Shown here: positions 1-19,000 of the stretch, one piece after another
How positions within the stretch are numbered: position 1 is the first letter of the stretch
How the letters are laid out: each line of letters begins with the position of its first letter
NCBI GenBank assembly: GCA_021787565.1
Contig: JAJYLT010000004.1
Span: forward strand, 52,295-116,294
Direction of reading: 5' to 3'
DNA: 64,000 nucleotides
Source: Acidobacteriota bacterium
GTDB taxonomy: Bacteria > Acidobacteriota > UBA4820 > DSQY01
Notes under the pieces: model-generated
Databases searched by the model: none
Seen by the model: the letters and a program-made list of their open reading frames with translations, nothing else
Told to the model about the DNA's origin: nothing
Program-made: the position numbers and the translations under genes

Positions 1-1
1 C

Positions 2-751
2 AAGCGATGGATGGTGCTGGATTCAGGCAGCAGCGTCATGCTCATTGGTGAAGATACGGTGAAGTCCCTTCACCTGAAACCCGTTTCGCCGGCCCAGTAT
101 TCAGGGCTGGGATCGGGAATCACCAAGCAGACAGAATGGGTGCTCTGCCCGAAAGTGACCGTGGGAGGCGCCGTCATTCGGAATGTTCCCGCCATGGTGA
201 TCGCCAGGCACAGCGACTTCTGGGAGCGCCGGGGAATTTGCCCGCTGTCACTCTTTCGCCCGTGGGCAATCCTCTTTGATCGGCGCCACGGCCGCCTGAC
301 GTTGTATCCCTCTGGGACCGATCCGGATGCAGTCCTGGGCCCCGGCACGTTTCGCCTACCAGCGATTTGGAGCGGCGCCCATCCCTGCGCCGAGATTTCC
401 ATTCAGGGCCATCCCGGTTGCTTTTGCGCAATAGACACGGGCGCCGTCAACACGGCTATCGTCGGTCGATATGCCAAGTCGATCGGAGTCCAGCCGCTAT
501 TGGGCAGGTTTGGGGGCGTTCGCAACCTGACTGTGTCGGGTAGCTTCGATAGCGGCTTGGCTGAAAACGTATCGATCCAGTTTGGGACACAGCAATTGCA
601 TATGGGCGTGGTTCAGGTAGCGCCTTTTTCTTTGGATGGCCTGTTCTTTCCCGTTTACGCCAACCTCGGCCGGGACATCCTGGACCTCTATGAGGGCTTC
701 TATGATTGGCCTCACGACGTCGTAGCTTTCAAGGCCTACGACAAGGGCTGA
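2..751 (+). CDS. retropepsin-like (clan AA) aspartic protease domain protein; 5' end lies outside the window
   Basis: The reading frame is open from the window edge. It has two D-[ST]-G-type motifs (VLDSGSS near the start, AIDTGAV mid-protein). The C-terminal GRDILDLY region aligns by eye with the C-terminal half of the 38486..40000 protein (LDTGAES, LLDTGAP, GRDILNRY). Confidence 0.6.
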   Translation, partial: KRWMVLDSGSSVMLIGEDTVKSLHLKPVSPAQYSGLGSGITKQTEWVLCPKVTVGGAVIRNVPAMVIARHSDFWERRGICPLSLFRPWAILFDRRHGRLTLYPSGTDPDAVLGPGTFRLPAIWSGAHPCAEISIQGHPGCFCAIDTGAVNTAIVGRYAKSIGVQPLLGRFGGVRNLTVSGSFDSGLAENVSIQFGTQQLHMGVVQVAPFSLDGLFFPVYANLGRDILDLYEGFYDWPHDVVAFKAYDKG

Positions 752-3204: not shown

Positions 3205-4522
3205 ATGAGGAAGGAGCTGGGGCCTGTCCCGAGACTGGACGAGGATTGGGAAGTGATTCTGCGGCATCTGCCAGAAGGCTGGGAAGATAAGGCCCTCGAG
3301 CTGGGAGCGATGACGCGGGCCCGGGGGTTCGAGAGTCCCGAGGCGCTGCTCCGGACGCTCCTGATTCATCTCTCGCAGGGGTGTTCCCTGAGGGAGACGG
3401 TAGTCAGGGCCCAGGAGGGAGGGATCGCCTGTGTGTCCGATGTGGCCCTATTCAAGCGGCTTCGCGCCTCGGGGGAATGGCTCCGCTGGATGGCGGGAGG
3501 CCTCTTGGGTGGCGCTTCCTGGACCGGGGTGCATGATGGAGGCCTGCGGGCGAGGGCCGTGGACGCAACGGTGGTTAGCGAGCCGGGCAGCACGGGCACG
3601 GACTGGCGCCTGCACTACGCGATCGACCTCAAGAGCCTAAACTGTGATCACTTCGAACTCACGGACGCTACCGGCGGTGAGTCGCTCCTGCGGGTACCCA
3701 TCTCGCCTGGCGACCTCCTCATCGGTGACAGGGCGTACGGCGGGGCGCCGGGGGTGAGGCACACGGTGCAATCGGGTGGGCACGTGCTCATCCGCTTGCG
3801 GCTGAACGGTCTCAGGTTGGCCACCCCCAGGGGAGTCGCCTTCAGCCCCCTCCACCGCGCCCGGCACCTCGAGGCCGGCGAGATCGGGGAGTGGCCCGTG
3901 TGCGCACTGGGAGCGGGCGAACCTATCCGGGGCAGGGTCTGCGCAGTGAGGAAGAGCAGGGCCGCCGCGGCCGAGGCGGAGAAGCGGTTGCTGAAGGAGT
4001 GCTCCAAGAAAGGGAAGAAGCCCACTCCGGCGGCGTTGGATGCGGCAAATTTCGTGCTCCTGTTCACCACGATCTCCGTTCAAGCCCTGTCCCGGTGGGA
4101 TGTGTGCGAACTGTACCGGGCTCGCTGGCAAATCGAACTCGCGTTCAAGCGGCTGAAATCCATCATGGCCCTCGGTCATTTGCCGAAGCACGACCCGGAG
4201 AGTTGCAAAGCCTGGCTCCACGGTAAGCTGTTCGTGGCCCTCCTGCTGGAGAGGACACTGGAAAGTGCCCGCGCATTTTCCCCCTGGGGGTACCGTGCGG
4301 CGTAGAAGACGCGGTATCCGGTTGGACCTTGTGGACAACCGCTGGCGCGAGTCAGCCTATCTCCTGCGAGAAATCCAGCGGGCGGTAGATCCATCGCCAG
4401 GCCTTGCTTCCAGTGTGTGCCAGTGGCGCAAGATCGAAAAGAGACTCAGGGCTTCCCATCGCTGGCGGTGGACGCAGATGGAGGAGTTAGACGCATTAGG
4501 TATAGTCGATGCGTTATCTTAA
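3205..4522 (+). mobile_element. IS4-family DDE transposase gene, interrupted by a +1 frame change near 4265-4305
   Basis: ORF 3205..4305 carries LIGDRAYGG and the IS4 Y-x2-R-x3-E-x6-K signature (YRARWQIELAFKRLK). It stops right after FSPWGY. A transposase-type C-terminus (NRWRESAYLLREIQRAVDP...WRKIEKRL) continues in ORF 4265..4522 in another frame. The element ends are not resolved. Confidence 0.75.
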
Positions 4523-4590
4523 GTTAGCGCTTATGCCCGTGAACCCCCTACCTATTCTCTCAGAATTCGGTAACGACCTTCTGATGCATG

Positions 4591-4606
4591 GGTCAGGCCT
4601 TCAGTG
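4591..4606. repeat. half copy (R-arm GGTCAGGCCTTCAGTG) of the island-specific palindromic element
   Basis: Matches the 5' arm of the elements at 7121 and 7910. No partner arm follows. A reversed fragment of the other arm (CTTAAGTTAGCGC) lies at about 4519-4531. Confidence 0.6.
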
Positions 4607-4677
4607 CTGGTCCTTTCCAACTCCTTCAGCAATGGCCTGGCCCCTTTTCCCGCATGCCCCCATTTCTCGCACTTGCC

Positions 4678-7110
4678 TCAATCCGTGCCGCTACATTCTA
4701 GCGAGGCCCGAAATGCGGGATGCACCACATACCACCCCGCACCCCCCTCAATCGGAACCATCAACTTTCTGAGGTCATACCTCATCTCGTAAGAATACCG
4801 TGGCCTTTCATCCTTCTTCCCTTGCACACCCAGAAAGCCATACCATGCGAGAAGCATCGCCGCATCGTCAACCTGTTCGGACGACAATCCTGCCCCCAAG
4901 AGAAGCTTCTTCACTTGGTCAGGCGGCAGGCACACGTCGCACCCAAGGAACACATACAGAATGTCCGGAATGCCTGGGTACACATCGCTCAATTCCGATC
5001 CCGCCAGCTGAAGCATGTCGTATGAATAATCGGCTTCCGCCTGCTTGAGATCTTCCCCCTGGACCCTATCGTGTCCCCGATTTATGGCAACCTCAATGGC
5101 CCGATGCAGAAACGAAAGAAAGTCCCTTGGTCGCATAAATGTTCTCTCAACGATATATTGAAAGGAATCCGAGGTATCGACGTATCGGTCAAATACTGCG
5201 CGCCATGTCTCTTGGAAGGAACCATTAAGGCCACCCGATGCTATAGCCCGTAATCGGAACAGTTCCTTGAACAGCTCCGTGTCTGCCCAGTCAAGAATAA
5301 TCGCTGTATCCTTTCCCTTATCGGCGGTTTCTCGGACGAGATGTTCATAAATGTCATTTCGGAGAAACACGAGACAATGGAAACGGACTCCCTGCTCTTC
5401 CAACTGGCCTTGAAGCTTCCGCGTGGCTTCAAGCAAGGTTCTAATGATTAGAACGTCGGACGCAGTTGTGCCCCTGGTAGGCCATCCTTTGTCAAGATTA
5501 TCAATGACGAGAGCTACCTCATCTTTGTCGCCGAGGTAATTTGCAACCGCGCAGTTCAATTGAGGAATGTCCTTCACGTATAGTAGCTCGGTTAGTTGGC
5601 TCGGGGATGGGACACCTCCCAGTTTCTTGCAGGCATTAGAAATGCTATTAACAAAGGCAAAGAGTCGCTCAGAGAAATCACCTCTTTCCGCATGCCCTAG
5701 CTTAGAGTCAATTAATGCGACCGCTTCATACCGTTTCCGCCGTTCTGGATCCCGGCTGGCCCATGGCTCCTCATCTTCAGTTATCTTGTGCGCAAGTTCT
5801 GCTAGGAGGATGGCATTCCAAAACGCGGTCATGGTATGTTCCTGCAGTCCAGGGGTTAGTTTCTCCAGTACCGATTCCCGTAATTTTGTGAATTGGTGCC
5901 CTTCGGGTTTCAGATCTAATACAAAGCGTGAGCGACTGTTCCCGAAAGAATCTTTGTACGCATAGAAGATTGCTGTCTTTCCCGAACCCTTTCTTCCAAT
6001 TACCAGCCTAGCGTAGCCTTGCTTAGCTTGTTGATATTGACCTGTCTTTAAGAAGTATGCCTTAAGGGGTTGGCGTTCGTTTTCAGCCGCGACGTCACCA
6101 ATATCCAACTTTTCAAGAAGTCCCTCTGGGGGCACGACTTGCCTGGTTTCCTGCCTTTGAAGCCAATTGATTATTTGCGTTATGGTGGGCTCCACCAAAC
6201 GAGGGACTTGATTGGGATCAGTGTAGCTCTTGGCCATGTCTCTATAGTCAATCGGCTGTTGAACATGCCCTTCTTGCAGCATTAATACGGCCTTCTTTGA
6301 TGCCATAGCTAGCCCGGCCGCAAATGCGCATCGTGCATTATGGACCTCAGCGCCTTTTCTTTCCTTGCTCAATAGGTGTGTAATGACGCCCAACGAGCTG
6401 CCCACTTGCCTTCGCACTTCATATAAGGACATTCTCGGCGTTTCAGTGGGATCAAACATCCGGAATTTTACGGCAGATCTTTTCAGGCTTGCTAGAAGGC
6501 GCACCTGGCCCTCAGTTTGCAGTGGACCAGCGAGCACATATAACGGAGCCTCAATGTTGATTGGGGCTGTAGTTGCAGCAAGCGCTACCAGGGGTAGGCA
6601 CTGTTTGATTCTTGCGCTGAGTTGTTCGGAATTCTGAAAGTCTGTATATCCCATTGTATCAAGCAAGCCCAGATCATCAAAGGCTCTCTTATCCTTAATA
6701 AAGGACGCATCTCGTATAGGCGCCACTGGGATTTCAAGCCCCAGTGCAAAACCTATCTCAAACAGAACGTTGAAATTGAGAGTGGTCACATCGGCAAAGA
6801 GATAGTTTGTTCGCCTCATCGCTTTGCAAATTGAACAAAATACTATCTGTCCTGCTATGTGCAAATCCTCCCAACTGCTCCATGGGCTCCCCGACGCATC
6901 TTGCTTAAGAATTGCAATGGCGGCCTTTATCGTCGCCGCAATCATGGGTGGATCTGATGGATAGAGGAACAAGCCATCCCCAGGCTCTGGCTCTGTCAGG
7001 TCCTGGTCACACTGTCCTGATGCATACTGACAAAAGGAAGGCGGCATCGAAAGGGAAGATTGGTCGTTCACAGGCTTTCTCCTAAAGGGATCTGAACACA
7101 GCTTCATCAA
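4678..7110 (-). CDS. tandem TIR-like / nucleoside 2-deoxyribosyltransferase-like domains fused to a P-loop NTPase (candidate defence protein)
   Basis: 810-aa ORF. The N-terminal ~330 aa hold two flavodoxin-like modules; the first ends in YLFADVTTLNFNVLFEIGFALGL, an acidic motif reminiscent of TIR-like/NDT-like folds (COG4271, CAP12/Pycsar-effector-type TIR). Walker A is GRKGSGKT and the Walker B-like motif is EVALVIDNLDKGW. An alternative GTG start at 7071 is preceded by AGGAG. Confidence 0.65.
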   Translation of the reverse strand: MMKLCSDPFRRKPVNDQSSLSMPPSFCQYASGQCDQDLTEPEPGDGLFLYPSDPPMIAATIKAAIAILKQDASGSPWSSWEDLHIAGQIVFCSICKAMRRTNYLFADVTTLNFNVLFEIGFALGLEIPVAPIRDASFIKDKRAFDDLGLLDTMGYTDFQNSEQLSARIKQCLPLVALAATTAPINIEAPLYVLAGPLQTEGQVRLLASLKRSAVKFRMFDPTETPRMSLYEVRRQVGSSLGVITHLLSKERKGAEVHNARCAFAAGLAMASKKAVLMLQEGHVQQPIDYRDMAKSYTDPNQVPRLVEPTITQIINWLQRQETRQVVPPEGLLEKLDIGDVAAENERQPLKAYFLKTGQYQQAKQGYARLVIGRKGSGKTAIFYAYKDSFGNSRSRFVLDLKPEGHQFTKLRESVLEKLTPGLQEHTMTAFWNAILLAELAHKITEDEEPWASRDPERRKRYEAVALIDSKLGHAERGDFSERLFAFVNSISNACKKLGGVPSPSQLTELLYVKDIPQLNCAVANYLGDKDEVALVIDNLDKGWPTRGTTASDVLIIRTLLEATRKLQGQLEEQGVRFHCLVFLRNDIYEHLVRETADKGKDTAIILDWADTELFKELFRLRAIASGGLNGSFQETWRAVFDRYVDTSDSFQYIVERTFMRPRDFLSFLHRAIEVAINRGHDRVQGEDLKQAEADYSYDMLQLAGSELSDVYPGIPDILYVFLGCDVCLPPDQVKKLLLGAGLSSEQVDDAAMLLAWYGFLGVQGKKDERPRYSYEMRYDLRKLMVPIEGGAGWYVVHPAFRASLECSGTD

Positions 7111-7120
7111 ATGATCGAGC

Positions 7121-7170
7121 GGTCAGGTCTTCGGTGTTGGTTATGGGGGCGCTAACAGTAAAGACTGACC
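7121..7170. repeat. island-specific ~50-bp imperfect palindrome (full copy)
   Basis: GGTCAGGTCTTCGGTGTTGG-TTATGGGGGCG-CTAACAGTAAAGACTGACC. The outer stem is about 10 bp with a bulge and the inner stem pairs TGTTGG with CTAACA. It lies between the lipoprotein gene and the 810-aa gene. Confidence 0.8.
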
Positions 7171-7303
7171 TTTCCAATTGCCTGTCGGGTGCGCAACGCC
7201 GCCTCCGAGTGTTATCTCCCCTCACTGTTCCTTCGGCCTGCGACCTGCTTCGCTCGAGCTAACGGCTATCCAAGCCACCTCCCGCGCCATGACCAACTGC
7301 TCC

Positions 7304-7843
7304 TCAGGCTTTCCAATGAAATATCTGGCTCAACGTTTTGTCGGCTGCATCATCGATGAATCGCATTGGACTCCCCGGTGCCAAAGTGAAGCCGGTAGCC
7401 GTTCGATTGTAGCTAGATGCGGCCAGCATGGTGTGAGTTCGGGCATCGAACACCTCTAGTGAGATGCCCGCCTTATCCCCATTGCCCGACCAAGCCGTAG
7501 CATTATCTTCCCAGTTCGTAAAGCTGGGCCGAACAAGATAATCAAATGAATTCTCCTTGGCTTCCCTGTATCCCGCTTCGAGCGCGGTGGCTTGTGTGAT
7601 CGAGATTTTCATGGAATGCTGCATCATTCGATCCCGTACTGCGGACACGAGTGCATTTGAAGAGCCCTTAGTAACCTCTTCCCCCCGTTCTTGCGCATCA
7701 TCGCAGGATAGTATCAGGAACTTCCCAGCCGGGTTTATTGATTGCCCTGGCACCACTTCCCCAACAACTCTAGTACGGGGTACAGAGCATGCCAGGCACA
7801 GACCGAAGACGACGGCAATGGCTGATGGTAAGTAGAGTTTCAT
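7304..7843 (-). CDS. lipoprotein, DUF4823-like, unknown function
   Basis: 179-aa ORF with a good RBS (AGAGGAGGGG) and a signal peptide with lipobox (VFGLCLAC-S). The FTNWEDNATAWSGNGDK segment resembles the DUF4823 lipoprotein family from memory. Confidence 0.6.
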   Translation of the reverse strand: MKLYLPSAIAVVFGLCLACSVPRTRVVGEVVPGQSINPAGKFLILSCDDAQERGEEVTKGSSNALVSAVRDRMMQHSMKISITQATALEAGYREAKENSFDYLVRPSFTNWEDNATAWSGNGDKAGISLEVFDARTHTMLAASSYNRTATGFTLAPGSPMRFIDDAADKTLSQIFHWKA

Positions 7844-7909
7844 GTCCCCTCCTCTTTACCCAACTAGATAGCGTGGGCTTCGCACTTATAGTACCCACTG
7901 AGACGCAGG

Positions 7910-7962
7910 GGTCAGGTCTTCAGTGTAAGTCATTTCGGACGCTAACAGTAAAGATTTGACCC
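7910..7962. repeat. island-specific ~50-bp imperfect palindrome (full copy)
   Basis: GGTCAGGTCTTCAGTGTAAG...GACGCTAACAGTAAAGATTTGACC. Two stem positions are G-T, which would be G-U pairs only in a plus-strand transcript. It starts 16 nt after the stop of 7978..8541. Confidence 0.8.
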
Positions 7963-7977
7963 CATTTCCGCGCAACA

Positions 7978-8541
7978 TCACGGCTTTCCCGCCTCTCTTG
8001 GGGCTGGCTTCTCCTTGCCTTCAGGTTTTTCCGCTCCAGGGGCAGCCACTTTGTCACCGGGCCGGGGAGAGACGAGGATTTGAACGTCCCCTGACTCCAG
8101 CGGGAGAATTACTTCAATCTTCTTTATGGTCCTGGCCTGCCCAGAACCGGAGGTGGCCACATTGCTGATCAAAGCTCCGGCCAGAAGGACATAGCCCAGG
8201 ACGAACGTCCACATCATGATGTTGTACGACCATTTTACCCAAGGTCCCAATGCTGGCGGCTCTGGAGGGGCGCCGGCAGCATCAGGGGCAGGTACTCTCA
8301 GGTCACGCCAAGCCGAGAAGGACGTAAAGACCCCAGAAAGCGCAGAGATCGCCAGTAATACCCAGGCCGCAATCATGGGGAACTTCCCGTGCGGCGCACC
8401 CTGAAAGCGGTCATAGAAATAGGTCCCGGATAGAACCAAGGCTCCTGTTGCTACACCGACCAACCAGTTGCTGCCATCCCGGATCCATTCCAGCCTTTTC
8501 GAATGCAGGTCAGCCTCTCCCATCAGCCACCCCCTACCCAC
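7978..8541 (-). CDS. membrane protein (3 TM helices) with charged Pro/Lys-rich tail, unknown function
   Basis: 187-aa ORF. Hydrophobic segments are WLVGVATGALVLSGTYF, MIAAWVLLAISALSGVFTSF and IMMWTFVLGYVLLAGALI. It lies 19 nt downstream of the 93-aa ORF, so co-transcription is likely. Confidence 0.6.
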   Translation of the reverse strand: MGRGWLMGEADLHSKRLEWIRDGSNWLVGVATGALVLSGTYFYDRFQGAPHGKFPMIAAWVLLAISALSGVFTSFSAWRDLRVPAPDAAGAPPEPPALGPWVKWSYNIMMWTFVLGYVLLAGALISNVATSGSGQARTIKKIEVILPLESGDVQILVSPRPGDKVAAPGAEKPEGKEKPAPREAGKP

Positions 8542-8560
8542 CTAGCCGAATGCGCCCTCC

Positions 8561-8842
8561 TCACGAGGCACAGAGTGGGCATCCGCTCGAGAAGGCATGC
8601 CGGAGATTGACGTGAGTCATTCCCAGGTTTCCTCCCCTCCTAAGCTCCGCGACAAGCCTCCCGGAGGCCCAATATGTCGCTTCCAGGAGGTCGTCGTTCG
8701 CCGCCCGATGGATAGCCGAGGCGTATTGCTTAATGATGGAATCCGCGATGGCCTCAGCCTCCGGCCTCCAGATCGGAACGGAATGAATGAGGTTACTTAT
8801 GAGAATGTCCCGTGCGCGGTCTACGACGCTGCCATCCGCCAT
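8561..8842 (-). CDS. small soluble hypothetical protein (93 aa)
   Basis: Intact ORF with an ATG start, immediately upstream of the membrane-protein gene. No recognisable motif. Confidence 0.45.
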   Translation of the reverse strand: MADGSVVDRARDILISNLIHSVPIWRPEAEAIADSIIKQYASAIHRAANDDLLEATYWASGRLVAELRRGGNLGMTHVNLRHAFSSGCPLCAS

Positions 8843-8928
8843 GGTCCTCCTCCCTCAGTGGGGTTCCCTCTCAAGAATGCGACATTCCTGCTGTTCTGCC
8901 TAGAAGCAGAACCCGCATTTCAAGAGCA

Positions 8929-8955
8929 GGGGCGCTAACAGTAAAGACTTGATTC
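8929..8955. repeat. half copy (L-arm GGGGCGCTAACAGTAAAGACTTGATT) of the island-specific palindromic element
   Basis: The 15-nt core CGCTAACAGTAAAGA is identical to the copies at 7151 and 7941. The partner arm is missing. An unrelated perfect 7-bp hairpin (GTTCTGC-ctagaa-GCAGAAC) lies just upstream. Confidence 0.7.
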
Positions 8956-9051
8956 CTCTTCATCCTCGGGCGCTCGCCGACCTTTTCCTTGCCGCCCAGC
9001 AAGATCCTACGCCTCCTGTGGCCTTTCAAGGTGCGACCTTTCTTCCACCAA

Positions 9052-12000
9052 TTACTCGAACCCACGGATGTTCTCCTCTTCTTCCCGCTTCCTGTCGACC
9101 TCCGCCATCCGTCTCAACTTGCGGGCGGAATTCATTGCCCAGCGCTTCAATTTCGGGTGCCTGGTTCGAATAGCGACCTCATCTAGAGTTCTGGCCAACT
9201 CCCCCCAATGGGCTGATGCGGGCCCGCTCCACCCTCCCGACAAGAAAACCGAGAAGTACTCCTCTCCGACATCCTTCCTGCCACCGTAAGCCGCAAGCAT
9301 ACGACCGGTGAGCGTCTCATCATTCGATAAGTCTTTGTTGGCGAAGTGTGCCACGATCGCACTTCGCTCTGCCGGTTGCTCTCGAACCCATTCCAGCACC
9401 ATCTCGGGAGGAATCTGGTCCATGATGCCGGCCGGGAATCCGACGCTAAAGGAATAGACCCCCGCAGACCGTGACAAGTGCGGCAGTAACGCTTGCCATA
9501 CGTCGCCAGGGTTCTGCTTAACACAAGCTTGTAGCACCACGGCCGCCTCACTATGCTCGGCGAACCAGATCCCAGCGGAATGGCTGGCCTGCTCTCGGAA
9601 GATCGCCGCGGCAATCTCCCCTGGGTGGTCGCAGACGTACCTTAGCGCCAGCTCCTTCCAGAAGTGATTGGTCATCGAACTGCTGCGTATGAGGTCCGAG
9701 TCAACTATCAGCTCAACCGCCAGTGCGCGCCATCTTTCTGCTTCCGTCTCTGACTGCTTGAGCCGCTGGTCAAGGATGGCGACGGCCGTCGCGCGATGGC
9801 CGCCTTCTGTCATGGCTCTAAGAACATTCTCTAGAAGGTCCTGTGACAGGTTTCCCCCCCAGACACCGTAGCCAAGCTGTCCCACGATCTCCGGCGGGAT
9901 TTCTTCTTGGCGAAGGAGGCTCGCAAGCTGAACCGACACGCCAGCGGTAGCGCCGCAGCGCCAAGCTACTTCGAAAAGGAGACCTGTCGGACGAGGATCA
10001 CGGTGAAGGACGGCCTCAAACCAATGGTCATACCAAGCATCCCCGCGACCCCGCCGCAACGCGCCAACATAGCCACACAGGATTCGAAAGTCGCGGCCGG
10101 AACCCGCGAACTCAAGTGCCCGTGCTGCAAATGTGCCGTCAGGGTCCTCGGCGGCAAGCGCCTCGCCGAGCCGCCAGGCGTCTGTCGCATCTCCCGAGGT
10201 CAACCAGGGCCATTCTTCAGCTAGCACACCATCAGATTCGAGGAGTTCCTTCGCAAGTTGCCGGAGATCGACTTGTTCCTCCCGGTCCCAGAATGTTTGT
10301 CCCACGAGTTCTCGAATGCGTCCTGTCAGCGATGCATCCTTGAATCGGGCGTGCATGGAATCCAGGCAAGCGAGTTCGCTTTCCGGCAGGCCCTTTGAGT
10401 ACTTGCGCGCGCGATATACGGCATCCGCGATCATTCTGCGAAGCGGCTCCCGCGACTGGGGATATCTGACCCGGACGGCGTCGAAGTACCGGCCAACAAA
10501 TGGTCGAGCATCCGGCTGTCTTAACAAGAACTTGAGTTCTCTGGCTGCCTCCAAGAAGTCTCTTTCTAGTTCGGCATCACCTTCCGCTGCGAGGGCAGTC
10601 ACACGCTTGATGGCAGATTCGATGCATCCAACGTGCTCTGCCCTGGTACTGGGCTTCCACTCCTCTTCAGGAAGCTCGTCGGATGCCGGTTCTGTAACCA
10701 TACGGCTCACGTGAGGCGCGCCAGCACGCGTTAGCGCTTTAATCACCAGCCTGTCAAGAGTAGATCGGTTCTCGTTGGACAAGTCATCAAGGACCTGCAG
10801 GCGCTCCAGGTAGGGCACAGCCGTGCCGCCCAAGAAGATCTGAAATAGGCCGACGAACTCGGCGGTGGCATTGTTCGCCCATGTTTCGTTTTCGGCTTCC
10901 GCCAAGAGGGCAAGTGCTTTCGCAGCGTCCGGAAATACTTCGGATCTCCAGGCGAGTCGAACGAGCGTCGACACCGCTATTCTGCGAGCAGCACCGTCAA
11001 CGCGCTTCCTGTCCGCAATGTCGCAGTCAGTCAATGCGCCAAGGATATTGCGTGCAGCTTGGTACGGATCGGCAGAGGAAAGGGCTGACCATCGCCGGAC
11101 CGCACGCGCATCGACGAAGTCAGCCAGATGAAAAAAACGATCTAAGGCCTGCCGAGCGAATTCTTTGGTGGTTGGGTTGCTTGCGATGGACCTAATACGC
11201 TCATAGTAGGCGTCTCGCGCACCCTCTGTCGGTAGAGCATCGGGCAAACCAGAAAGATGATTTCCGTAGGTCCTCCAAGCCTCAATGGCCAAGTAATTCC
11301 CTAAAGGAGTTGGCGAGATGTATCGGTAGCGGCCACCACGAGGCACGATCCCAAGTCGGCGGTCAAAGGCCTCTACTTCTGCCTGTGCAATATTCCAATC
11401 GAGATGAAGGTGACCTGATACCGCTTGGCCCTCGGTCTGCACTTCCTCGGTCCAGCCAACACTGGCAAGGACAGCAACAACATGAAGGGCACGCCTGTCG
11501 CCTGGACCGAGCATGCGGTCTAGGAAATCACGGATTTCCTCTCGATCTAGAAGCCCTCGAATGTTCAAGGCGGGGTCCTTGGCGACCGCATCGGCTGCCA
11601 GCAGCGCCAGTCGTATGTAGCCATCGGCAAACCGAACGACAAATTGCACGTGCTCTGGGGGCATCGTGGTGTGTAATGCTGAGACGACCTTTCCTGCCGT
11701 CTCTTGGTCCAAGGGATTAACCTTGAAGGACTGAATGCGAGTTGGCTCAGGTGATGCGCAGTGGCCAATGGTGATGAGACGGATCCGCCCATTTGTACGG
11801 CCAATCGAATCACGCAATGGCAAAAGTTGGTCCGGTTGTACCTCATCAGCAACAACTACCAGGCGAACATCGGGCTCGGCGGCGGCAGAATCAATTAGTG
11901 CGGGCAGGCGGAAGTCGGCCGCCTGCCGGAAATAGACTACAAATGCGGACCACGGCGCATCACGGCATAGCTCCAGCGCAAATCTCGTTTTGCCCACACC

Positions 12001-12687
12001 GGGTTGGCCTTGGATGTGCAGGTGTTGGACCGTCCCGGAATCGAACTCCATGGCTGCTCTCAGTTTCTCCAACTCAGACATCGTGTTGTCCAGTGCCTGC
12101 CAGGGCACCTGATGAACCTCGGCCCTCAACCAATCACCGAGCAACCACAGGCCCCCGGGTCGTCCAGCCCACCGGGCCGCAACGGCCGGATTCTGATTGC
12201 ACCAGGTGGTGAGGCGCTCACTCCCGATCACTTCAATACTTCCGGTGGTAATATCTGCGGCCAGGGCCTCGTCCCTCAGTACATCCTTGCGGTCCGCTTC
12301 ACCTTGTACGCCGTTGGTCGACCCACTTGCGACAACAACGAAACGTCCCTCGTCTTCCAGCGTCTTCCTCGGTATTGGCTTGATTACCTCGCCCTTGAGT
12401 TTTGAAGGCTGACCCGCAACTCCGGCCTTGAACTGCCAACAGGTGGCGGTCCTGCCGAGCCATGAATCGTCTAGTTCGGGCTCAGCAGTCCATCCATCAC
12501 ATCCGCCATCCTTTGCCTTTCCTTCGGTGTTGATCGTCAGTCTAGATAACGGAGATCGACAACGGTGGGCTTGGGCTCGCAACAGGTCATGCATTAGCTC
12601 AGTAAGGTCCGAATCACTCAAGGCTGCAATCCTCGCGGGCGATACCTGCAGGGCATCGCGGTAGACTTCTGGATGAGGCCTACTCAT
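9052..12687 (-). CDS. Mrr-like (PD-(D/E)xK) nuclease domain + STAND-type P-loop NTPase + long alpha-helical repeat region (Avs-like single-gene defence candidate)
   Basis: 1211-aa ORF with RBS GGGGAGG. The N-terminus (SDSDLTELMHDLLRAQA...KDGGCDGW...CWQFK) fits the D...(E/Q)xK restriction-endonuclease pattern. Walker A is GQPGVGKT and Walker B is LVVVADEV. About 750 C-terminal residues are Leu/Ala/Arg-rich and helical. Confidence 0.7.
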   Translation of the reverse strand: MSRPHPEVYRDALQVSPARIAALSDSDLTELMHDLLRAQAHRCRSPLSRLTINTEGKAKDGGCDGWTAEPELDDSWLGRTATCWQFKAGVAGQPSKLKGEVIKPIPRKTLEDEGRFVVVASGSTNGVQGEADRKDVLRDEALAADITTGSIEVIGSERLTTWCNQNPAVAARWAGRPGGLWLLGDWLRAEVHQVPWQALDNTMSELEKLRAAMEFDSGTVQHLHIQGQPGVGKTRFALELCRDAPWSAFVVYFRQAADFRLPALIDSAAAEPDVRLVVVADEVQPDQLLPLRDSIGRTNGRIRLITIGHCASPEPTRIQSFKVNPLDQETAGKVVSALHTTMPPEHVQFVVRFADGYIRLALLAADAVAKDPALNIRGLLDREEIRDFLDRMLGPGDRRALHVVAVLASVGWTEEVQTEGQAVSGHLHLDWNIAQAEVEAFDRRLGIVPRGGRYRYISPTPLGNYLAIEAWRTYGNHLSGLPDALPTEGARDAYYERIRSIASNPTTKEFARQALDRFFHLADFVDARAVRRWSALSSADPYQAARNILGALTDCDIADRKRVDGAARRIAVSTLVRLAWRSEVFPDAAKALALLAEAENETWANNATAEFVGLFQIFLGGTAVPYLERLQVLDDLSNENRSTLDRLVIKALTRAGAPHVSRMVTEPASDELPEEEWKPSTRAEHVGCIESAIKRVTALAAEGDAELERDFLEAARELKFLLRQPDARPFVGRYFDAVRVRYPQSREPLRRMIADAVYRARKYSKGLPESELACLDSMHARFKDASLTGRIRELVGQTFWDREEQVDLRQLAKELLESDGVLAEEWPWLTSGDATDAWRLGEALAAEDPDGTFAARALEFAGSGRDFRILCGYVGALRRGRGDAWYDHWFEAVLHRDPRPTGLLFEVAWRCGATAGVSVQLASLLRQEEIPPEIVGQLGYGVWGGNLSQDLLENVLRAMTEGGHRATAVAILDQRLKQSETEAERWRALAVELIVDSDLIRSSSMTNHFWKELALRYVCDHPGEIAAAIFREQASHSAGIWFAEHSEAAVVLQACVKQNPGDVWQALLPHLSRSAGVYSFSVGFPAGIMDQIPPEMVLEWVREQPAERSAIVAHFANKDLSNDETLTGRMLAAYGGRKDVGEEYFSVFLSGGWSGPASAHWGELARTLDEVAIRTRHPKLKRWAMNSARKLRRMAEVDRKREEEENIRGFE

Positions 12688-12913
12688 TTCTTGCTGCCTC
12701 CCCTAACCGATTCATATCGTCACGAACCGTATTGCCAGACGAATTGGCGGTACCGCCTTCGAAATGACGGGGTCACGAGATAGCCGAGTAGGGCGGCCAT
12801 CGTCTCTGTGATGGCCACCTTTCTCAGAAATCATAGCGGCCGTTCCCTTTCCTTCGGCCCTCCACTTGCATGGTGGCGGTGGGCAAAGTCGAATCGCCGC
12901 TCTTACCGACTGT

Positions 12914-12972
12914 ACTCTCTTCACCTCTTGACCTCTTGACCTCTTCACCTCTTTACTCTTCACCCTTTACCA
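12914..12972. repeat. octanucleotide tandem repeat (CCTCTTSA)n
   Basis: CTCTTCACCTCTTGACCTCTTGACCTCTTCACCTCTTTACTCTTCACCC with period 8, at the right border of the low-GC island. Confidence 0.8.
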
Positions 12973-13057
12973 TTCCTTCTCCGTGCTCTCGGCGCTCTCC
13001 GTGGTGAATCCCCCGCCCCGGGGTCGGACCGGGGGCGGGGGTGGTGTCGGGTTGGGT

Positions 13058-13615
13058 TCAGCTCTGTGGCGCCTGTGTGGCGGGGGGCTGGTCTCCTCCC
13101 GGGCTGGCCGGGCCGCCGTTGCCGCCGGCGGGGGGGATGAGGCCCCTGAAGCGCTGGGCGAGGGCGGGGTTGCTGCGCCGGTACTGGAGGACGCCGGCGG
13201 TGGCGATGGCCTCGATGGCGGCTTCGACGCGCCGCTGGATGTCGTTCTTCGCCGCGCCGTTGGAGCGGCGCCGGACGGCCTCGCGGATGTCCGCGGCCCA
13301 CTGCGCGCCGGCGGCCGCGATGTCCTCCTGGGACCCGGTCAGGCCCTTCACCTGCCCGGTCTTGATGGGCCGGTCCGTCTCCATGGCTTCCAGTTGGGTC
13401 AGGTCGGCGCCGAAGCCGTCCATCAGCCCCGCGGGCAGGCGCGGCTCCAGCTCCTTCAGATACTGCTGTCCCAGCATCTTCGCCTCTTTGCCGTAGGCGA
13501 CGACCCGATCGATTTCCCATTTGGGCTTGTTGTCTTTCCTCACGGTCATTCCCTCATTCGTTTCAGGTTTCCCTTTCCCTCGTTGCGGCTCGTGTTGTCC
13601 TTTCTTGCTTCCCAT
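13058..13615 (-). CDS. hypothetical protein
   Basis: 185-aa ORF with protein-like composition (KPKWEIDRVVAYGKEAKMLGQQYLKELEPRL...). An alternative ATG at 13549 is preceded by GAGGGA. A GC hairpin (CCCCCGCCCCGG...CCGGGGGCGGGGG) follows the stop. No family recognised. Confidence 0.5.
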   Translation of the reverse strand: MGSKKGQHEPQRGKGKPETNEGMTVRKDNKPKWEIDRVVAYGKEAKMLGQQYLKELEPRLPAGLMDGFGADLTQLEAMETDRPIKTGQVKGLTGSQEDIAAAGAQWAADIREAVRRRSNGAAKNDIQRRVEAAIEAIATAGVLQYRRSNPALAQRFRGLIPPAGGNGGPASPGGDQPPATQAPQS

Positions 13616-14526
13616 CCCACACCCTGGGCCTCCCCCGGCGTCTTCTCCCCCCCCCTTTCCAAGACCTCTCTAGGCCGGTCGCCCTCCCTAACTGATGAAA
13701 ACACACTGTTTACGAGACCCGCGCGGGGCCGTCCGACGCCCGAACGGCTCCTCCCGGGAGCTGAACGCCGTCTCGCGCGAGCGGCGGGCGGGGCCCCGCG
13801 CGGGGCGAGCCCTCCCTCCGAAGGAAAAAGGCGCCCGCCGCCCCCGGTCACGGGGCAACGGGGTCTCGCCGGCTGGGGCGGCGAGGGGACGGAGGCGACG
13901 GGCGTTGAGGGGGCCTCGGCGGGGCGCGATAGGGCGCCGCCCGGGGGTGGCGGACACGGAGCGCACCCGCCAAGGCCGATCGTAGAGAGGGAAACCGAGC
14001 CAGGACGGCCTGACCGCCGGAGCGGCCCGGCTGGGCGGGGGGTGCCTGCCGGTTCTCGGCGGTCATCCCCCCGGGTTGCAAGAAAGCCTCCCTCGGGGGA
14101 AAAAGAGCCCCGCCGCCCCGGGGACATGGGACGGCGCGCGTGCGGCCTGGACGACGCGACGCCCCGGGGGCGGCGGGGGGCACGGTTCTCCGGCGGCGCT
14201 CCGCCCCCGCCCGGCAGGCCAGGCCGGGGGGCGCAAGCACGGAGACGACGAAGAACCCACCCGAAGGAGGGTTCACGGACTATGTGTGGAGGGCCAGGCG
14301 CGGGGCGGGGGCAGGGAGCGGATGCCGCGAGAGGAGCCCCCGGGGCCGCCCGGCGCCCCGCCGCGAGACCCGCGCGCGCGTGCGGAAATGGAGCTGTGAC
14401 GGGCTTCCCAAGTGCCATGTCCCCCCTCCCTCGCGATGACTGACCTTGGAGCTTAGCTGGTATGGTGGAAGCATAGTCCCGCCCGGGCCGCCTGTCAAGA
14501 CGAGGCGCGCTGACGAGGCGCGCTGT

Positions 14527-15463
14527 CGTCATCCTGACGGGGCCCCTCGAAGGGCCCATGGCCCCGCCGTTGCGGCGTCATCCTGAGGCATCCTTCGAAG
14601 GGCCGCCCTGGAAGGATCTCAAGGGTGGGAGATGCCCGGACCTCGCCTGAGATTCTTCGGGGGATGGCCGTTGGGGGCAGCCCTCAGAATGACGACCATG
14701 GGGGCGGGAGGGGGAACGTGATGGGTGCGCGTCATCATGAGGAACCCTTCGAAGGGCCGCCCTGGAAGGATCTCAAGAGTGGGAGATGCCTGGACCTCGC
14801 CTGAGATTCTTCGGGGGGAGACCGTTGGGGGCAGCCCTCAGAATGACGACCATGGGGGCGGGAGGGGGAACGTGATGGGTGCGCGTCATCCTGAGGCACC
14901 CTTCGAAGGGCCGCCCTGGAAGGATCTCAAGAGTGGGAGATGCCTGGTCCTCGCCTGAGATTCTTCGGGGGGAGACCGTTGGGACAGCCCTCAGAATGAC
15001 GGGCACGGGGGCGGGAGGGGGCTGGATTCCCGCCCCACCGGGGACCGCGTCATCCTCGGAAACCTTTCGAAGGGCCGCCCTGGAAGGATCTCATGGGTGG
15101 GAGATGCCCGGACCTCGCCTGAGATTCTTCGGGGGGAGCCCGCCGCGGGCGGCCCTCAGAATGACGGCAATGGGGGTGGGAGGGGGCTGGAATCCCGCCG
15201 TCCAGAGGCCGGCGCCGGATACAGGCCGGCGGGATTCCGTGTCAGAAGCCCTCTGTGGGCTTGCCACGGAATGACAGGGCATGGAGGAAGTGGAGGACCA
15301 GTCTCGAAGCGGCGGGCGAGGGCGCCCGCCCCACCGGGGAAAATGTCATCCTGAGGAAGACCTTCGAAGGGCCGCCCTGGAAGGATCTCAAGGGTGGAAG
15401 GTGTCCGGGCCTCGCCTGAGATTCTTCGGGGGGAGACCGTTGGGGGCAGCCCTCAGAATGACG
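14527..15463. repeat. tandem array (about 6 units) of ~154-bp nested-palindrome repeats
   Basis: Units start with GTCATCCTGAGG and end with CCCTCAGAATGACG. An inner inverted pair is GAAGGATCTCAAG / CTGAGATTCTTC. Successive GTCATC starts are seen at about 14577, 14731, 14885, 15048 and 15343. Reading through gives the PEILR...QND pseudo-peptides known from similar repeats in other phyla. Confidence 0.85.
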
Positions 15464-15795
15464 GCGACGACGGCGGGATGCGGAATGTGAGGCGTGCGAT
15501 AGGGGCGGAGGACGAAAGACCACTGGTATCCGTCATCTTTCGTTTCATCATCCCATGAACCCCGCCCTCAGCGGCGATGGTGCGCTGAGGGCGTTGTTTC
15601 GGTAACATTGACACTGGGGCGCCGGGGAGCCAGTTCTTCGGATCGGCCTCGCAAACTTTTCGCGCCCATTACCGTATGATCAGTCTTCCTGGGTCCGGCA
15701 GGTATGATCTGGCGGGCATCCTTTTCTGGGGCACCAGACGGGCTCAAGTGGAATCGCCGGCCGCTGAATGCCGGCGCCGAGAACGGGAGGCCACT

Positions 15796-16365
15796 GTGAC
15801 TTCTGAATCAATTGTGTGGGTCGTCGTTGGGCTCTTTCCTGTTTCGGAGATTGCACTCGGCATCTTCAAGCGGGCCGGCTCCCGCTCCGCTTCCAGTGAA
15901 GACCGCGGCTCGTTGCGGATCCTTTGGCTCGCCATCATGCTCGGTATCCTCTTCGCCATGGCGTCCCTGCGGGTCTCCTCGGCCAGCCTTCGGCTATCCA
16001 GCGCCGTGGTTTACGCCCTAGCCCTCGTCTTCCTCCTTTCGGGACTCACCATTCGCTGGATCGCGATCGTGACTCTCGGTCGCTTCTTCACCGTCGATGT
16101 CGCCATCCAAAAGGACCACGTGGTGGTTCAGCACGGCCTGTACCGCCTTGTGAGGCACCCGTCCTACTCCGGGCTTCTGCTGGCTTTCTTCGGCCTAGGC
16201 TTGTTCTTCGCCAATTGGCTCAGCCTCCTCGGCCTGCTGGCGCCGATCACCCTGGCGGTCATCAACCGAATCGCGAAAGAGGAACGGGCGCTTCTTGCGG
16301 CCCTCGGTGCACCCTACGCGGCCTATTGTGCCCGTACAAAACGCCTTCTCCCCGGCTTGTTCTAG
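15796..16365 (+). CDS. isoprenylcysteine carboxyl methyltransferase (ICMT) family / phospholipid methyltransferase-like membrane protein
   Basis: A GTG at 15796 is preceded by GGGAGG. The protein has multiple TM helices and the C-terminal motif HGLYRLVRHPSYSGLLL...EERALL typical of ICMT/PEMT-fold enzymes. The track ORF begins at 15676, but its first 40 codons look non-coding. Confidence 0.7.
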   Translation: MTSESIVWVVVGLFPVSEIALGIFKRAGSRSASSEDRGSLRILWLAIMLGILFAMASLRVSSASLRLSSAVVYALALVFLLSGLTIRWIAIVTLGRFFTVDVAIQKDHVVVQHGLYRLVRHPSYSGLLLAFFGLGLFFANWLSLLGLLAPITLAVINRIAKEERALLAALGAPYAAYCARTKRLLPGLF

Positions 16366-16396
16366 CCCACCAGCCGAGGCTTGCCATCGGCCGGCG

Positions 16397-16893
16397 GGTG
16401 GAGGACCAGCCTCGAAGCGGCGGGCGGGGGCGCCCGCCCCACCGGGGGCCGCGTCATCCTGACGGCGCCCCTCGAAGGGCCCATGGCCCCGCCGTTGCGG
16501 CGTCATCCTGAGGAACCCTTCGAAGGGCTGCCCTGGAAGGATCTCAAGAGTGGGAGATGCCTGGTCCTCGCCTGAGATTCTTCGAGGGAAACCCGCTGCG
16601 AGCGGCCCTCAGAATGACGGGCACGGGGGCGGGAGGGCAGAAGAAGAAGGGCACAGCACGAAGTCACAGAGCAAGGGCGAATGGATAATGCAAAGGATGA
16701 CACTGACGGCCGACTGCGGGTGGAGGACCAGCCTCGAAGCGGCGGGCGGGGGCGCCCGCCCCACCGGGGAAAATGTCATCCTGAGGAAGACCCTCGAAGG
16801 GCTGCCCTGGAAGGATCTCAAGGGTGGGGGACGCCCGGACGGCGCCTGAGGTCCCTCGGAAGGCGCCCGTTGCGGGCAGTCCTCGGAATGACG
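16397..16893. repeat. second array of the ~154-bp nested-palindrome repeat plus GGAGGACCAGCCTCGAAGCGGCGGGCGGGGGCGCCCGCCCCACCGGGG sub-repeat
   Basis: It uses the same GTCATCCTGAGG...CTCAGAATGACG units as 14527-15463. The sub-repeat recurs at about 15290, 16395 and 16718. Confidence 0.8.
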
Positions 16894-16932
16894 GGATGGA
16901 AGGGCCCCTCGTTTCTTCGAAGGCCTCCCTAC

Positions 16933-16966
16933 GCCCTAGTCCCCTAGTCCCCTAGTCCCCTAGTCA
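16933..16966. repeat. octanucleotide tandem repeat (CCCCTAGT)n
   Basis: CCCTAGTCCCCTAGTCCCCTAGTCCCCTAGTCAC, directly downstream of the stop codon of 16973..18364. Confidence 0.85.
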
Positions 16967-16972
16967 CTTTCC

Positions 16973-18364: not shown

Positions 18365-18454
18365 GGTGAGCCTCCCGCGGGCCGTGGCCCCGCCGCCCCG
18401 GGCCGCCCGCCGATCGAGGCATCATCGTACCACGCGGGGGGAGGGGGGGAAGGC

Positions 18455-19000
18455 GTGATGAGGTGATTAGGTGATTAGGTGATGAGGTGATGAGGGTGAG
18501 GGGAGGCCTTCGGGGGCGAGATGAGGGGATGAGGGGATGAGGGGATGAGGTGATGAGCGATTGAGCGATTAAGCGATTAAGGAAATAGCGCGGGGGAAGG
18601 CCTTCGAAGCAGGACGGCCGGAATCGCTTTGGCCGTCATTCCGGGACCTGGTTGCGCTTCGCTGGCCGGGATTTCAGCTTGTCGGGAATCCTCCTCCGTC
18701 ACCGCCCCAGATTCTGGACTCGCTCCGCTCGCCAGAATGACCGCAAAGGAGGGGCCGTCATTCCAGGTCCTGGTCGCGCTGCGCTTGCCAGGATTTCAGC
18801 TTGTCCGGAATCGGATTCTGGACTCGCTCCGCTCGCCAGAATGACCGCAAAGGGGGCCGCGCTCCGCCCAGTCCCCTCCCTGCCTTTCGCTCAATCGCCT
18901 TTCGCTTAATCGCGTCTCGCTTAATCGCTTCATCGCCTTTCGCTCAATCGCGTCTGTCCTCTAGCGTCCTCTCGTCTCCCATCTCTCGTCTCGCCTCCCA
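18455..19000. repeat. ~550-bp composite intergenic palindrome built from 8-nt tandem repeats with two central ~105-bp direct repeats
   Basis: The left arm is (GTGATKAG)n, (GATGAGGG)n and (GCGATTRA)n. The right arm carries the reverse complements (CGCTCAATCGC, CGCTTAATCGC, CTCGTCTCCCATCTC). The centre holds two copies of GTCATTCCRGG...GATTCTGGACTCGCTCCGCTCGCCAGAATGACCGCAAAGG. Confidence 0.8.

Follow-up and report, generated by a model that had tools for sequence, protein, structure and literature searches.

The stretch of DNA considered here, referred to as the window, comprises 64,000 nucleotides of an Acidobacteriota genome (NCBI GenBank assembly GCA_021787565.1, contig JAJYLT010000004.1, positions 52,295 to 116,294 of the forward strand), and the element in question is an 8.5-kb block of low guanine plus cytosine (GC) content towards its left end, occupied by five minus-strand open reading frames (ORFs) that we call g1 to g5. 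A first-pass annotation had described the block as an island flanked by insertion sequences (IS) and made up of five co-oriented genes with defence-type architectures, two of which were large fusions to P-loop nucleoside triphosphatases (NTPases). The five ORFs are present and co-oriented as described, each is preceded by its own Shine-Dalgarno sequence, and the spacers between them measure 64-210 nt. Read in the direction of transcription, they are g5 (9052-12687, 1211 amino acids (aa)), an Avs-type STAND protein; g4 (8561-8842, 93 aa), a soluble protein with the C-terminus CPLCAS; g3 (7978-8523, 181 aa), a membrane protein with three transmembrane (TM) segments, whose start we set at Met7 of a 187-aa ORF, matching its homologues; g2 (7304-7843, 179 aa), a predicted lipoprotein of the DUF4823 family; and g1 (4678-7071, 797 aa), in which two TIR/NDT-like domains precede an Sll1717-family P-loop ATPase. 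The start of g1 is a GTG at 7071 with AGGAGA upstream; in-frame TTG and ATG codons further upstream have no ribosome-binding site, and gene callers likewise pick the 797-aa form. The two large fusions are thus real, one placing an Mrr-like nuclease on a STAND NTPase (g5) and the other TIR/NDT-like domains on a P-loop ATPase (g1). As set out below, the block is probably a compositionally foreign island of four separate cassettes (g5; g1; the pair g4-g3; and g2), and not one five-gene system.

Between about 4.4 and 12.95 kb the GC content in 500-nt windows is 0.49-0.60, against 0.65-0.70 before the block and 0.66-0.79 right after it, and every other 2-kb bin of the window lies at or above 0.64 (range 0.64-0.73). 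GC at third codon positions (GC3) is 0.51-0.68 in the five island genes as compared with 0.80-0.95 in the flanking genes; measured against the background of the window, tetranucleotide distance has a median of about 0.15 and peaks at 0.59 at 4-8 kb. By sliding-window GC and by tetranucleotide profile, composition is not uniform, and the change of character noticed in the first-pass annotation is borne out. The island is also uneven internally, with g1 and g2 at a GC of 0.50-0.52 and g3, g4 and g5 at 0.58-0.59, which suggests more than one donor.

Horizontal acquisition of the block is supported by this composition together with the phylogenetically scattered relatives of its genes, and not by presence or absence among close relatives. 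The metagenome-assembled genome GCA_027328665.1 and assemblies from ENA and Logan encode g5 at 100% protein identity, always in the same arrangement, and a search with the flanking proteins returned no island-free allele: all 7-8 public contigs with the flanking genes hold the island, so that comparison with related genomes, from which exact junctions had been hoped for, yields no empty site. This uniform presence, and the fact that the case for acquisition is compositional, both tell against a foreign origin, and one could argue that the block is native and owes its lower GC to local constraints, or that it was acquired long ago and has since become fixed. The ends would fit such a view, as no tRNA gene lies at an island edge (the sole tRNA in the window is a tRNA-Phe at 27.6 kb) and no integrase or direct repeats were found there. 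The same view has difficulty with the gap in GC3 between island and flanks, with a tetranucleotide distance four times that of the background, with closest relatives of g1 and g5 that reside in unrelated phyla and in differing contexts, and with the internal GC split and its hint of more than one donor. We consider it improbable that the block is native or long fixed, and retain the reading as a foreign island.

The relatives of g1 and g5 bear directly on how the five genes belong together. Homologues of g1 are solitary in 76 species genomes, where the biggest neighbour cluster is common to 5 of the 76 loci, and tblastn gave zero matches to homologues of g2-g5 at these loci. Homologues of g5 (52-62% identity) likewise stand alone, in four unrelated contexts (L004-L007): in one case with uvrC and kdpD on either side, in another behind a type I restriction-modification system and an AAA_15/DUF3696 gene, in a third at about 5 kb from a PARIS-like pair of AAA_21 and DUF4276 genes, and in the fourth within an Oceanidesulfovibrio marinus islet of integrase, AlpA and HigBA genes. 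None of the other four island genes is found at these four loci, nor do the loci share a conserved downstream gene. At one of them (L006), a 515-aa protein with PNP_UDP_1 and Lcl_C domains is encoded directly downstream of the g5 homologue (10833-12380), and an AAA_15/AAA_21 plus DUF4276 pair lies about 5 kb away; purine nucleoside phosphorylase-like domains are a known type of defence effector.

One could nevertheless picture the five genes as one cooperating defence system or operon, in which sensing and effector functions fall to the two NTPases and accessory ones to the small and membrane proteins, given that the genes are co-oriented and closely spaced, that a repeated intergenic element is common to their spacers, and that every contig of this population has the genes in the identical arrangement. 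Those identical contigs, however, represent a single population and not independent information, every gene has its own Shine-Dalgarno sequence and spacers of 64-210 nt, g1 has no conserved neighbour, and not one of the 76 g1 loci or the four g5 loci holds any of the other four genes. The comparative data largely refute a common system, and in view of this lack of co-occurrence in 76 plus four related loci we discarded it as a candidate; that the five-gene arrangement works as one unit is very improbable.

The repeated intergenic element is an imperfect palindrome of about 50-80 nt that follows each cassette (after g5, g3, g2 and g1) and, as reported in the first pass, occurs nowhere else in the window. 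An exact 15-mer, TCTTTACTGTTAGCG, has three occurrences in the window where 0.02 are expected (starts at 7150, 7940 and 8933), and the partner arm, CACYGAAGRCCTGACC, has three where 0.21 are expected (starts at 4591, 7121 and 7910). All copies are assigned to the minus strand. Copy A (8929-8961), between g5 and g4, consists of the left arm only, with the 15-mer at 8933-8947. Copies B (7895-7975, between g3 and g2) and C (7105-7185, between g2 and g1) are full, with the 15-mer at 7940-7954 and 7150-7164 and the right arm at 7910-7925 and 7121-7136, respectively. Copy D (4575-4655), downstream of g1, is a diverged full copy with the right arm CACTGAAGGCCTGACC at 4591-4606; it is colinear with copy B over about 80 nt and folds as a long-range hairpin. 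The arms give an imperfect stem of 11-13 bp around a loop of 27-30 nt, with energies that are not better than those of shuffled sequence (z -0.1 to -1.7); the best hairpin of the set is that of copy B (z -1.3 to -1.4), and copy C also folds as a hairpin. A separate, perfect 8-bp stem-loop (GTTCTGCT-TCTA-GGCAGAAC region) is located on the minus strand of the g5-g4 spacer at 8890-8925, just past half-copy A, in the place where copies B and C have their right arm.

Sigma-70 promoters and intrinsic terminators were considered for these elements and set aside, with no consensus match at the palindromes and unexceptional hairpin energies. It is tempting to regard the palindromes as the recombination or transposition sites by which the cassettes were stacked, whether integron attC sites, IS-derived repeats resembling miniature inverted-repeat transposable elements (MITEs) or mobile insertion cassettes (MICs), or other att sites. 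The island does resemble integron arrays and MICs in that its cassettes are all co-oriented and each is followed by a similar imperfect palindrome; the hairpin is of integron-like size, the last copy abuts an IS4-family transposase gene, and near the other side of that gene a 15-nt stretch is complementary to a palindrome arm at 12 of 15 positions. The likeness goes no further, for there is no nearby integrase, R''/R' core consensus or significant IS terminal repeat. In the precomputed Pfam annotation, no tyrosine recombinase or IntI is found within about 10 kb on either side, and by inspection the arms (GGTCA.../...TGACC) do not have the RYYYAAC/GTTRRRY core at the right place, so attC was rejected. 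Terminal repeats of the IS4 element, the basis of the MITE/MIC idea, fared no better, the 12/15 match notwithstanding: the best local alignment of the IS flanks scores 8, against a mean of 8.9 for shuffled sequence. The unremarkable folding energies also argue against stacking sites, as does a search of Joint Genome Institute (JGI) metagenomes with a 22-base pattern, which found no further copy. We give such a role little credence, and take it as most likely that the palindrome marks a shared assembly history or a shared regulation of the cassettes.

Turning to the individual genes, g5 matches the PADLOC profile PD-Lambda-4_A with an E-value of 5.2e-21 over residues 18-711, corresponding to positions 9-737 of the 1283 in the profile, and the same profile is matched by 38 of 40 g5-family members (best E 1.9e-29). 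PD-lambda-4A, which now goes by the name Avs8A, is a STAND NTPase that carries an Mrr nuclease domain (10.1101/2025.07.02.662641) and in which binding of the HK97-fold major capsid protein switches on DNase activity (10.1101/2025.07.02.662641; 10.64898/2026.01.04.697583). The alignment shows g5 to be homologous to PD-lambda-4A/Avs8 over what are predicted to be its nuclease, its NTPase and the first part of its helical region, and supports its membership of the experimentally validated defence lineage Avs8/PD-lambda-4.

The order of these parts is visible in an AlphaFold2 (AF2) model of residues 1-1200 (mean predicted local distance difference test (pLDDT) 86.2), in which an alpha/beta N-terminal domain is followed by a P-loop domain and a helical and winged-helix module, and the chain continues from about residue 460 as a solenoid made up of helices only. 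The first of these is a predicted Mrr-like PD-(D/E)xK nuclease (12118-12636, residues 18-190; minus strand, as for all gene segments given here) with the invariant residues D60, D64, Q85 and K87. Its core runs alpha-beta-beta-beta-alpha-beta in the model, with the invariant residues on beta-2 and beta-3: D64 lies just ahead of strand 65-67 and Q85-x-K87 within strand 82-87. No direct match to Pfam Mrr_cat was obtained for g5, and the nuclease region falls within the PD-Lambda-4_A alignment. The NTPase with its helical and winged-helix module (11308-12090, residues 200-460) carries the Walker A motif GQPGVGKT (K233) and the Walker B motif VVVADE (D281/E282), both intact and invariant across the family alignment, and Pfam assigns AAA_16 to 24 of the 40 members and nSTAND3 to three. 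The remainder (9055-11307, residues 461-1211) is an all-alpha solenoid and the presumed ligand sensor; residues 461-1200 are modelled as all-helical with pLDDT mostly above 85, Foldseek relates the solenoid to the HEAT/ARM proteins CAND1, importin-beta and SF3B1, and a TPR_14 match is weak. For g5 as a whole, the best Foldseek match in the PDB is Avs3 bound to terminase (8dgc_B, E 1.7e-6), followed by SAMD9 (9zjs_A), EfAvs5 (9jap_A), AVAST5 (9nc9_D) and then HEAT/ARM solenoids, at low TM-scores (0.13-0.17) in which only individual modules superpose. Sequence and profile searches of the PDB with g5 gave nothing useful beyond an RFC-like P-loop match.

Compared with known systems, g5 shares with Avs8A of E. 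coli ECOR07 a nuclease of Mrr type at the N-terminus, the STAND P-loop NTPase and a C-terminus that is long and helical, and with its best structural matches, Avs3, Avs4 and Avs5 (AVAST) and SAMD9, the succession of effector, STAND module and repeat sensor. It differs from Avs1-5 in that none of their PADLOC profiles is matched by any of the 40 family members at E<=1e-3. It differs from Avs8 in its sensor, as full-length homology to Avs8A was not found: the profile is matched only as far as position 737 of 1283, and the C-terminal 500 residues (712-1211) are not alignable. Because g5 and the Avs8 profile cannot be aligned in the sensor half, the Avs8 ligand cannot be transferred to g5. A further difference is the partner gene, for no match to PD-Lambda-4_B was found among g1-g4 (PADLOC, E<=0.1). 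The small protein g4 was considered as an Avs8B partner and ruled out, on account of this negative search and of the lack of a conserved gene downstream of the g5 homologues. Finally, PD-lambda-4 has been reported from Proteobacteria only, whereas the g5 family, which has at least 297 members, most of them close to 1210 aa in length and sharing 48-62% identity from end to end, occurs in Armatimonadota, Oceanidesulfovibrio and many uncultured lineages. The two supplementary files of a 2026 STAND survey contain no occurrences of g5 relatives.

We conclude that g5 is a stand-alone Avs-type sensor-nuclease whose chassis is related to Avs8. By analogy with Avs8, Avs3 and Avs4, its solenoid would bind a conserved phage protein and this binding would free g5 from autoinhibition, whereupon ATP-dependent oligomerisation would gather the nuclease domains, which might then cleave DNA and abort the infection.

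The second large protein, g1, matches the NCBIfam model ATPase_Sll1717 (NF047389) from end to end (profile positions 1-454 of 454, E 8.9e-87, 292.1 bits against a cut-off of 75). The only name that NCBI gives the family is 'P-loop ATPase, Sll1717 family', and a literature search found no paper naming Sll1717. The ATPase module (4699-6102, residues 324-791) has an intact Walker A motif, GRKGSGKT (K365), and a Walker B region VIDNLD (D524/D527), and 45 of 50 family members match Pfam AAA_16. The NTPases of g1 and g5 were considered as paralogues, and this was not supported, as the P-loop alone aligns. Ahead of the ATPase, an AF2 model of residues 1-340 (pLDDT 82.8, predicted TM-score (pTM) 0.83) has two successive Rossmann-like domains. 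Domain 1 (6598-6981, residues 31-158) is TIR/NDT-like and of flavodoxin type, and contains Glu105 in NFNVLFEIG; this residue is invariant in 50 sequences, within the motif (N)xNxxFE(I)G, and lies inside the stretch that aligns to positions 52-96 of the Nuc_deoxyrib_tr profile; by motif, it may be equivalent to the catalytic Glu. Domain 2 (6139-6543, residues 177-311) is a second Rossmann-like copy in which, in the family alignment, HNARCAxxAG is set against NFNVLFEIG and Ala takes the place of the domain-1 Glu; the role of domain 2 is probably that of a regulator or of a partner in a pseudo-dimer. Pfam Nuc_deoxyrib_tr is recognized at the N-terminus of 16 of the 50 members (best E 1.3e-6), with g1 itself at E 0.15 over residues 77-119. 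Searching Foldseek with the N-terminus returned DNPH1 (TMt 0.50-0.70, with 9i58_B at 0.70) and PdTIR (3h16, TMt 0.65) at probabilities of 0.96-1.0 (1.0 for both 9i58_B and 3h16), further single-domain matches to SARM1, MyD88 and TIR-STING, and generic two-domain matches.

Relatives of g1 are numerous and widely dispersed. Among the candidates scored, 1365 proteins belong to the family at E<=1e-5, including members from the isolates Terriglobus roseus DSM 18391 and Actinoplanes utahensis NBRC 13244. The 76 loci in species-representative genomes, at 37-65% identity to g1, span more than 12 phyla: Acidobacteriota, Nitrospirota, Gemmatimonadota, Actinomycetota, Chloroflexota, Bacteroidota, Verrucomicrobiota, Thermodesulfobacteriota, Pseudomonadota, Spirochaetota, Omnitrophota, Bacillota, Planctomycetota and a candidate phyla radiation (CPR) lineage. 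A search of the species-representative genomes returned no identical copy of g1, the best match being 65% identical. Two homologues are carried on IMG/VR viral contigs. In one locus (L011, 7001-11001) a g1 homologue is directly followed by a ThsB_TIR gene, an ORF of 167 aa and a TIR_2 gene, on a mobile element that also encodes a resolvase, a primase-helicase and an HTH_17 protein, and the whole is possibly a composite locus based on TIR proteins.

Set beside known systems, g1 resembles more than one and coincides with none. No named antiphage family of PADLOC v2 or NCBIfam gave a significant, near-full-length match. The retron-Eco1 effector, an NDT-type N-glycosidase, hydrolyses NAD(P)+ (PMC12673091), and g1 shares with retron-Eco1 (Ec86) the NDT-family fold, with the Glu kept in domain 1; unlike it, g1 has no reverse transcriptase or multicopy single-stranded DNA (msDNA), and its enzyme domain is fused to a Glu-less copy and an ATPase. 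The DUF4062 protein 'Swarozyc', an NADase immune effector spread by horizontal transfer, combines an N-terminal NADase bearing a catalytic Glu with a C-terminal sensing domain (10.64898/2026.05.01.722283). Like it, g1 is a single protein with a Glu-bearing N-terminal TIR/NDT-like domain and a C-terminal auxiliary part, but DUF4062 (PF13271) is absent from the ten families matched by the 50 g1 members at E<=0.01, and the auxiliary part is a P-loop ATPase and not an AUX domain. The ATPase region also has a weak, recurrent similarity to component C of PDC-M28 in PADLOC (E 1.5e-4 for g1; 30 of 50 members, best 1.1e-8). In contrast to PDC-M28, which is a multi-gene system and itself an unvalidated candidate, g1 is solitary, and the match covers about 110 residues only. 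Other weak matches were to DS41_1 (21.6 bits, cut-off 370), to a CBASS TIR-effector profile (4e-4) and to mad8.

A single-gene abortive-infection protein is a plausible but unproven description of g1, drawn by analogy. Domain 1 would be an N-glycosidase with Glu105 as its catalytic residue and the ATPase module would be its switch; once activated, g1 would break down NAD(P)+ or a (deoxy)nucleotide by hydrolysis and so abort the infection, in the manner of the retron-Eco1 NDT effector and the DUF4062/Swarozyc NADases. More specifically, we tentatively propose, as a possibility, that g1 represents an undescribed single-gene abortive-infection system of many phyla, in which an NDT/TIR-like N-glycosidase, made of a catalytic and a Glu-less copy, is gated by an Sll1717 ATPase without a repeat sensor. 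If this were true, the lack of a repeat sensor on the ATPase would imply that infection is sensed otherwise than by Avs and NLR-like proteins.

Several observations weigh against this proposal and, in part, against an immune reading of the island at large. The functions of all five genes are predicted, and the defence role of g1 is one that we infer, with a genomic context that speaks only weakly for it. Foldseek E-values of the single-domain matches are weak (0.01-0.03), PDB searches with the g1 sequence and its profile found nothing, and membership of the g1 ATPase in the STAND class found no support, its profile comparison with g5 aligning the P-loop only. Mean column identity across phyla is 61-68% in the g1 and g5 families, which is unusually high for immune sensors. 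Among 132 neighbour ORFs in 20 g1 genomes, the commonest Pfam families are housekeeping ones, such as MFS transporters, outer-membrane barrels, ribonucleotide reductase and DNA ligase, and Phage_integrase and HNH_2 account for just three matches each. One homologue (57% identity) even sits between gyrB and gyrA (L010, 7001-9382) in an otherwise canonical dnaA-dnaN-recF-gyrB-gyrA cluster.

On these grounds, g1 could instead be a regulated nucleotide or NAD N-glycosidase that acts in salvage, stress response or signalling and is laterally mobile by chance. The housekeeping neighbours, the homologue within the gyrase cluster and the strong conservation between phyla would all be natural for such an enzyme, as would the lack of matches to named defence hidden Markov models and a family name that refers to nothing but the ATPase. 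It is harder to reconcile with the patchy occurrence in many phyla at 40-65% identity between phyla and without conserved context, which is typical of a mobile accessory gene, and with an architecture that is standard among abortive-infection NTPases, in which an enzymatic head, here TIR/NDT-like, is joined to an ATPase, here of the AAA_16 type. Nor would it account for the adjacency to an Avs-type gene here and to ThsB_TIR and TIR_2 genes in L011, for the two copies on viral contigs, or for the recurrent, if weak, resemblance to PDC-M28C, a candidate defence protein, and to profiles of TIR effectors. We regard a non-immune g1 as the less probable reading but as a serious rival to the abortive-infection proposal, which we favour tentatively.

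The three middle genes offer no such leads. A match of g2 to Pfam PF16105 (DUF4823; E 1.9e-10, 41.2 bits, gathering threshold 25.9) is accompanied by an N-terminal signal and a Cys lipobox, as read off the translation. Seventeen homologues of g3 have a strongly conserved three-TM N-terminus with the motif RSxRLxWIRDGSNWLVG, and about half of them, the long forms, add an OmpA-like peptidoglycan-binding C-terminus. A SLATT effector identity was considered for g3 and rejected, its SLATT_4 match reaching E 0.083 and 12.7 bits (cut-off 55) and the profile matching only 3 of 15 family members. For g4, profile searches gave no family match and no relative was found among 1.84 billion representative proteins, but a g4-like ORF ending in CPLCA(S), mostly left uncalled by gene annotation, is encoded immediately ahead of the g3 homologue in three of the four available loci, which are on unrelated contigs (L089, 5750-6501; L093, 1206-1839; L095, 4811-5519). 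Because of this immediate succession, we treat g4-g3 as a conserved pair. Its surroundings elsewhere (a radical-SAM protein; acetyl-CoA synthetase and a GNAT protein; a two-component system) are not defence-related, and neither family matches nor contexts gave a defence signal for g2, g3 or g4, which would appear to be envelope-associated passengers. Thus the defence character initially ascribed to the island's genes holds for g5, through its place in the Avs8/PD-lambda-4 lineage, is plausible for g1, and finds no backing in the other three; in PADLOC terms, g5 matches PD-Lambda-4_A, g1 belongs to no named system and no PD-Lambda-4_B is encoded by g1-g4.

At its left border the island adjoins a gene for an IS4-family DDE transposase (3205-4305, plus strand, 366 aa), which had been taken for a frame-broken one. 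The ORF covers positions 3-331 of the 332 in the NCBIfam model transpos_IS4_1 (E 2.7e-36, 125 bits, cut-off 115) and also matches Pfam DDE_Tnp_1 (E 1.8e-13); since the IS4 model is matched end to end, it is not visibly frame-broken. Two short plus-strand ORFs in other frames follow the transposase, at 4265-4522 (85 aa) and at 4509-4772 (87 aa, extending into the 3' end of g1). Both are annotated by some gene callers, neither yielded evidence for a family, and the impression of a broken transposase in the first-pass annotation may have arisen from them. With a GC of 0.66 and a GC3 of 0.80 the transposase gene is host-like and lies outside the low-GC block. Local alignment of the two IS flanks, compared with shuffled sequence, gave no significant terminal inverted repeats, and all eight public contigs with this transposase (8/8) have identical surroundings, because of which the ends of the element cannot be mapped. 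There is no IS on the right border, so the island is IS-adjacent, on the left only, and not IS-flanked. Of the gene fragments reported at this border, one is real: a 112-aa piece of an arylamine N-acetyltransferase (Acetyltransf_2) at 949-1287 on the minus strand, left of the transposase. It adjoins the 3' part (window positions 1-751) of a 528-aa Asp_protease_2 (retropepsin-like) gene, and still further left on the same contig, outside the window (L098), are a HicA toxin pair and a patatin-like gene. The variable region may be larger than the low-GC block.

On the right, the compositional border coincides with a tandem array of about six copies of the octamer CTCTTCAC (12917-12964), immediately beyond which GC climbs from 0.55 to 0.66-0.74. 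The repeat-dense DNA reported on this side is confirmed: the stretch 12900-19000 reaches a GC of 79% and is rich in repeats, among them a 154-nt tandem array of 3.9 copies (14575-15186) with related copies at 15296-15481 and 16446-16894, further octamer arrays at 16934-16965 and about 18455-18581, dispersed families of 87-186 nt, and inverted pairs that join 16915-16968 to 18463-18609. Two ORFs placed by gene callers at 13058-14418 (163 and 290 aa) are Arg/Pro-rich, of low complexity and without Pfam match, and judging from this composition are probably not genes.

What is new here is, on the one hand, a chassis akin to that of Avs8 in which the sensor differs and the B gene is lacking, represented by g5, and, on the other, an unnamed NDT/TIR-like ATPase fusion, represented by g1. 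The comparative result makes the two separate single-gene units and cautions that g2-g4 are not to be presumed immune genes. If g5 is active, the Avs8-type combination of nuclease and STAND module would extend to a new sensor and to non-proteobacterial lineages of soil and sediment, with a new ligand to be discovered. If g1 is a defence gene, a very widespread family of more than 1300 homologues would join the NDT/TIR-like effectors that deplete NAD or nucleotides, and its regulatory module, an ATPase without repeats, would be of a kind so far unstudied.

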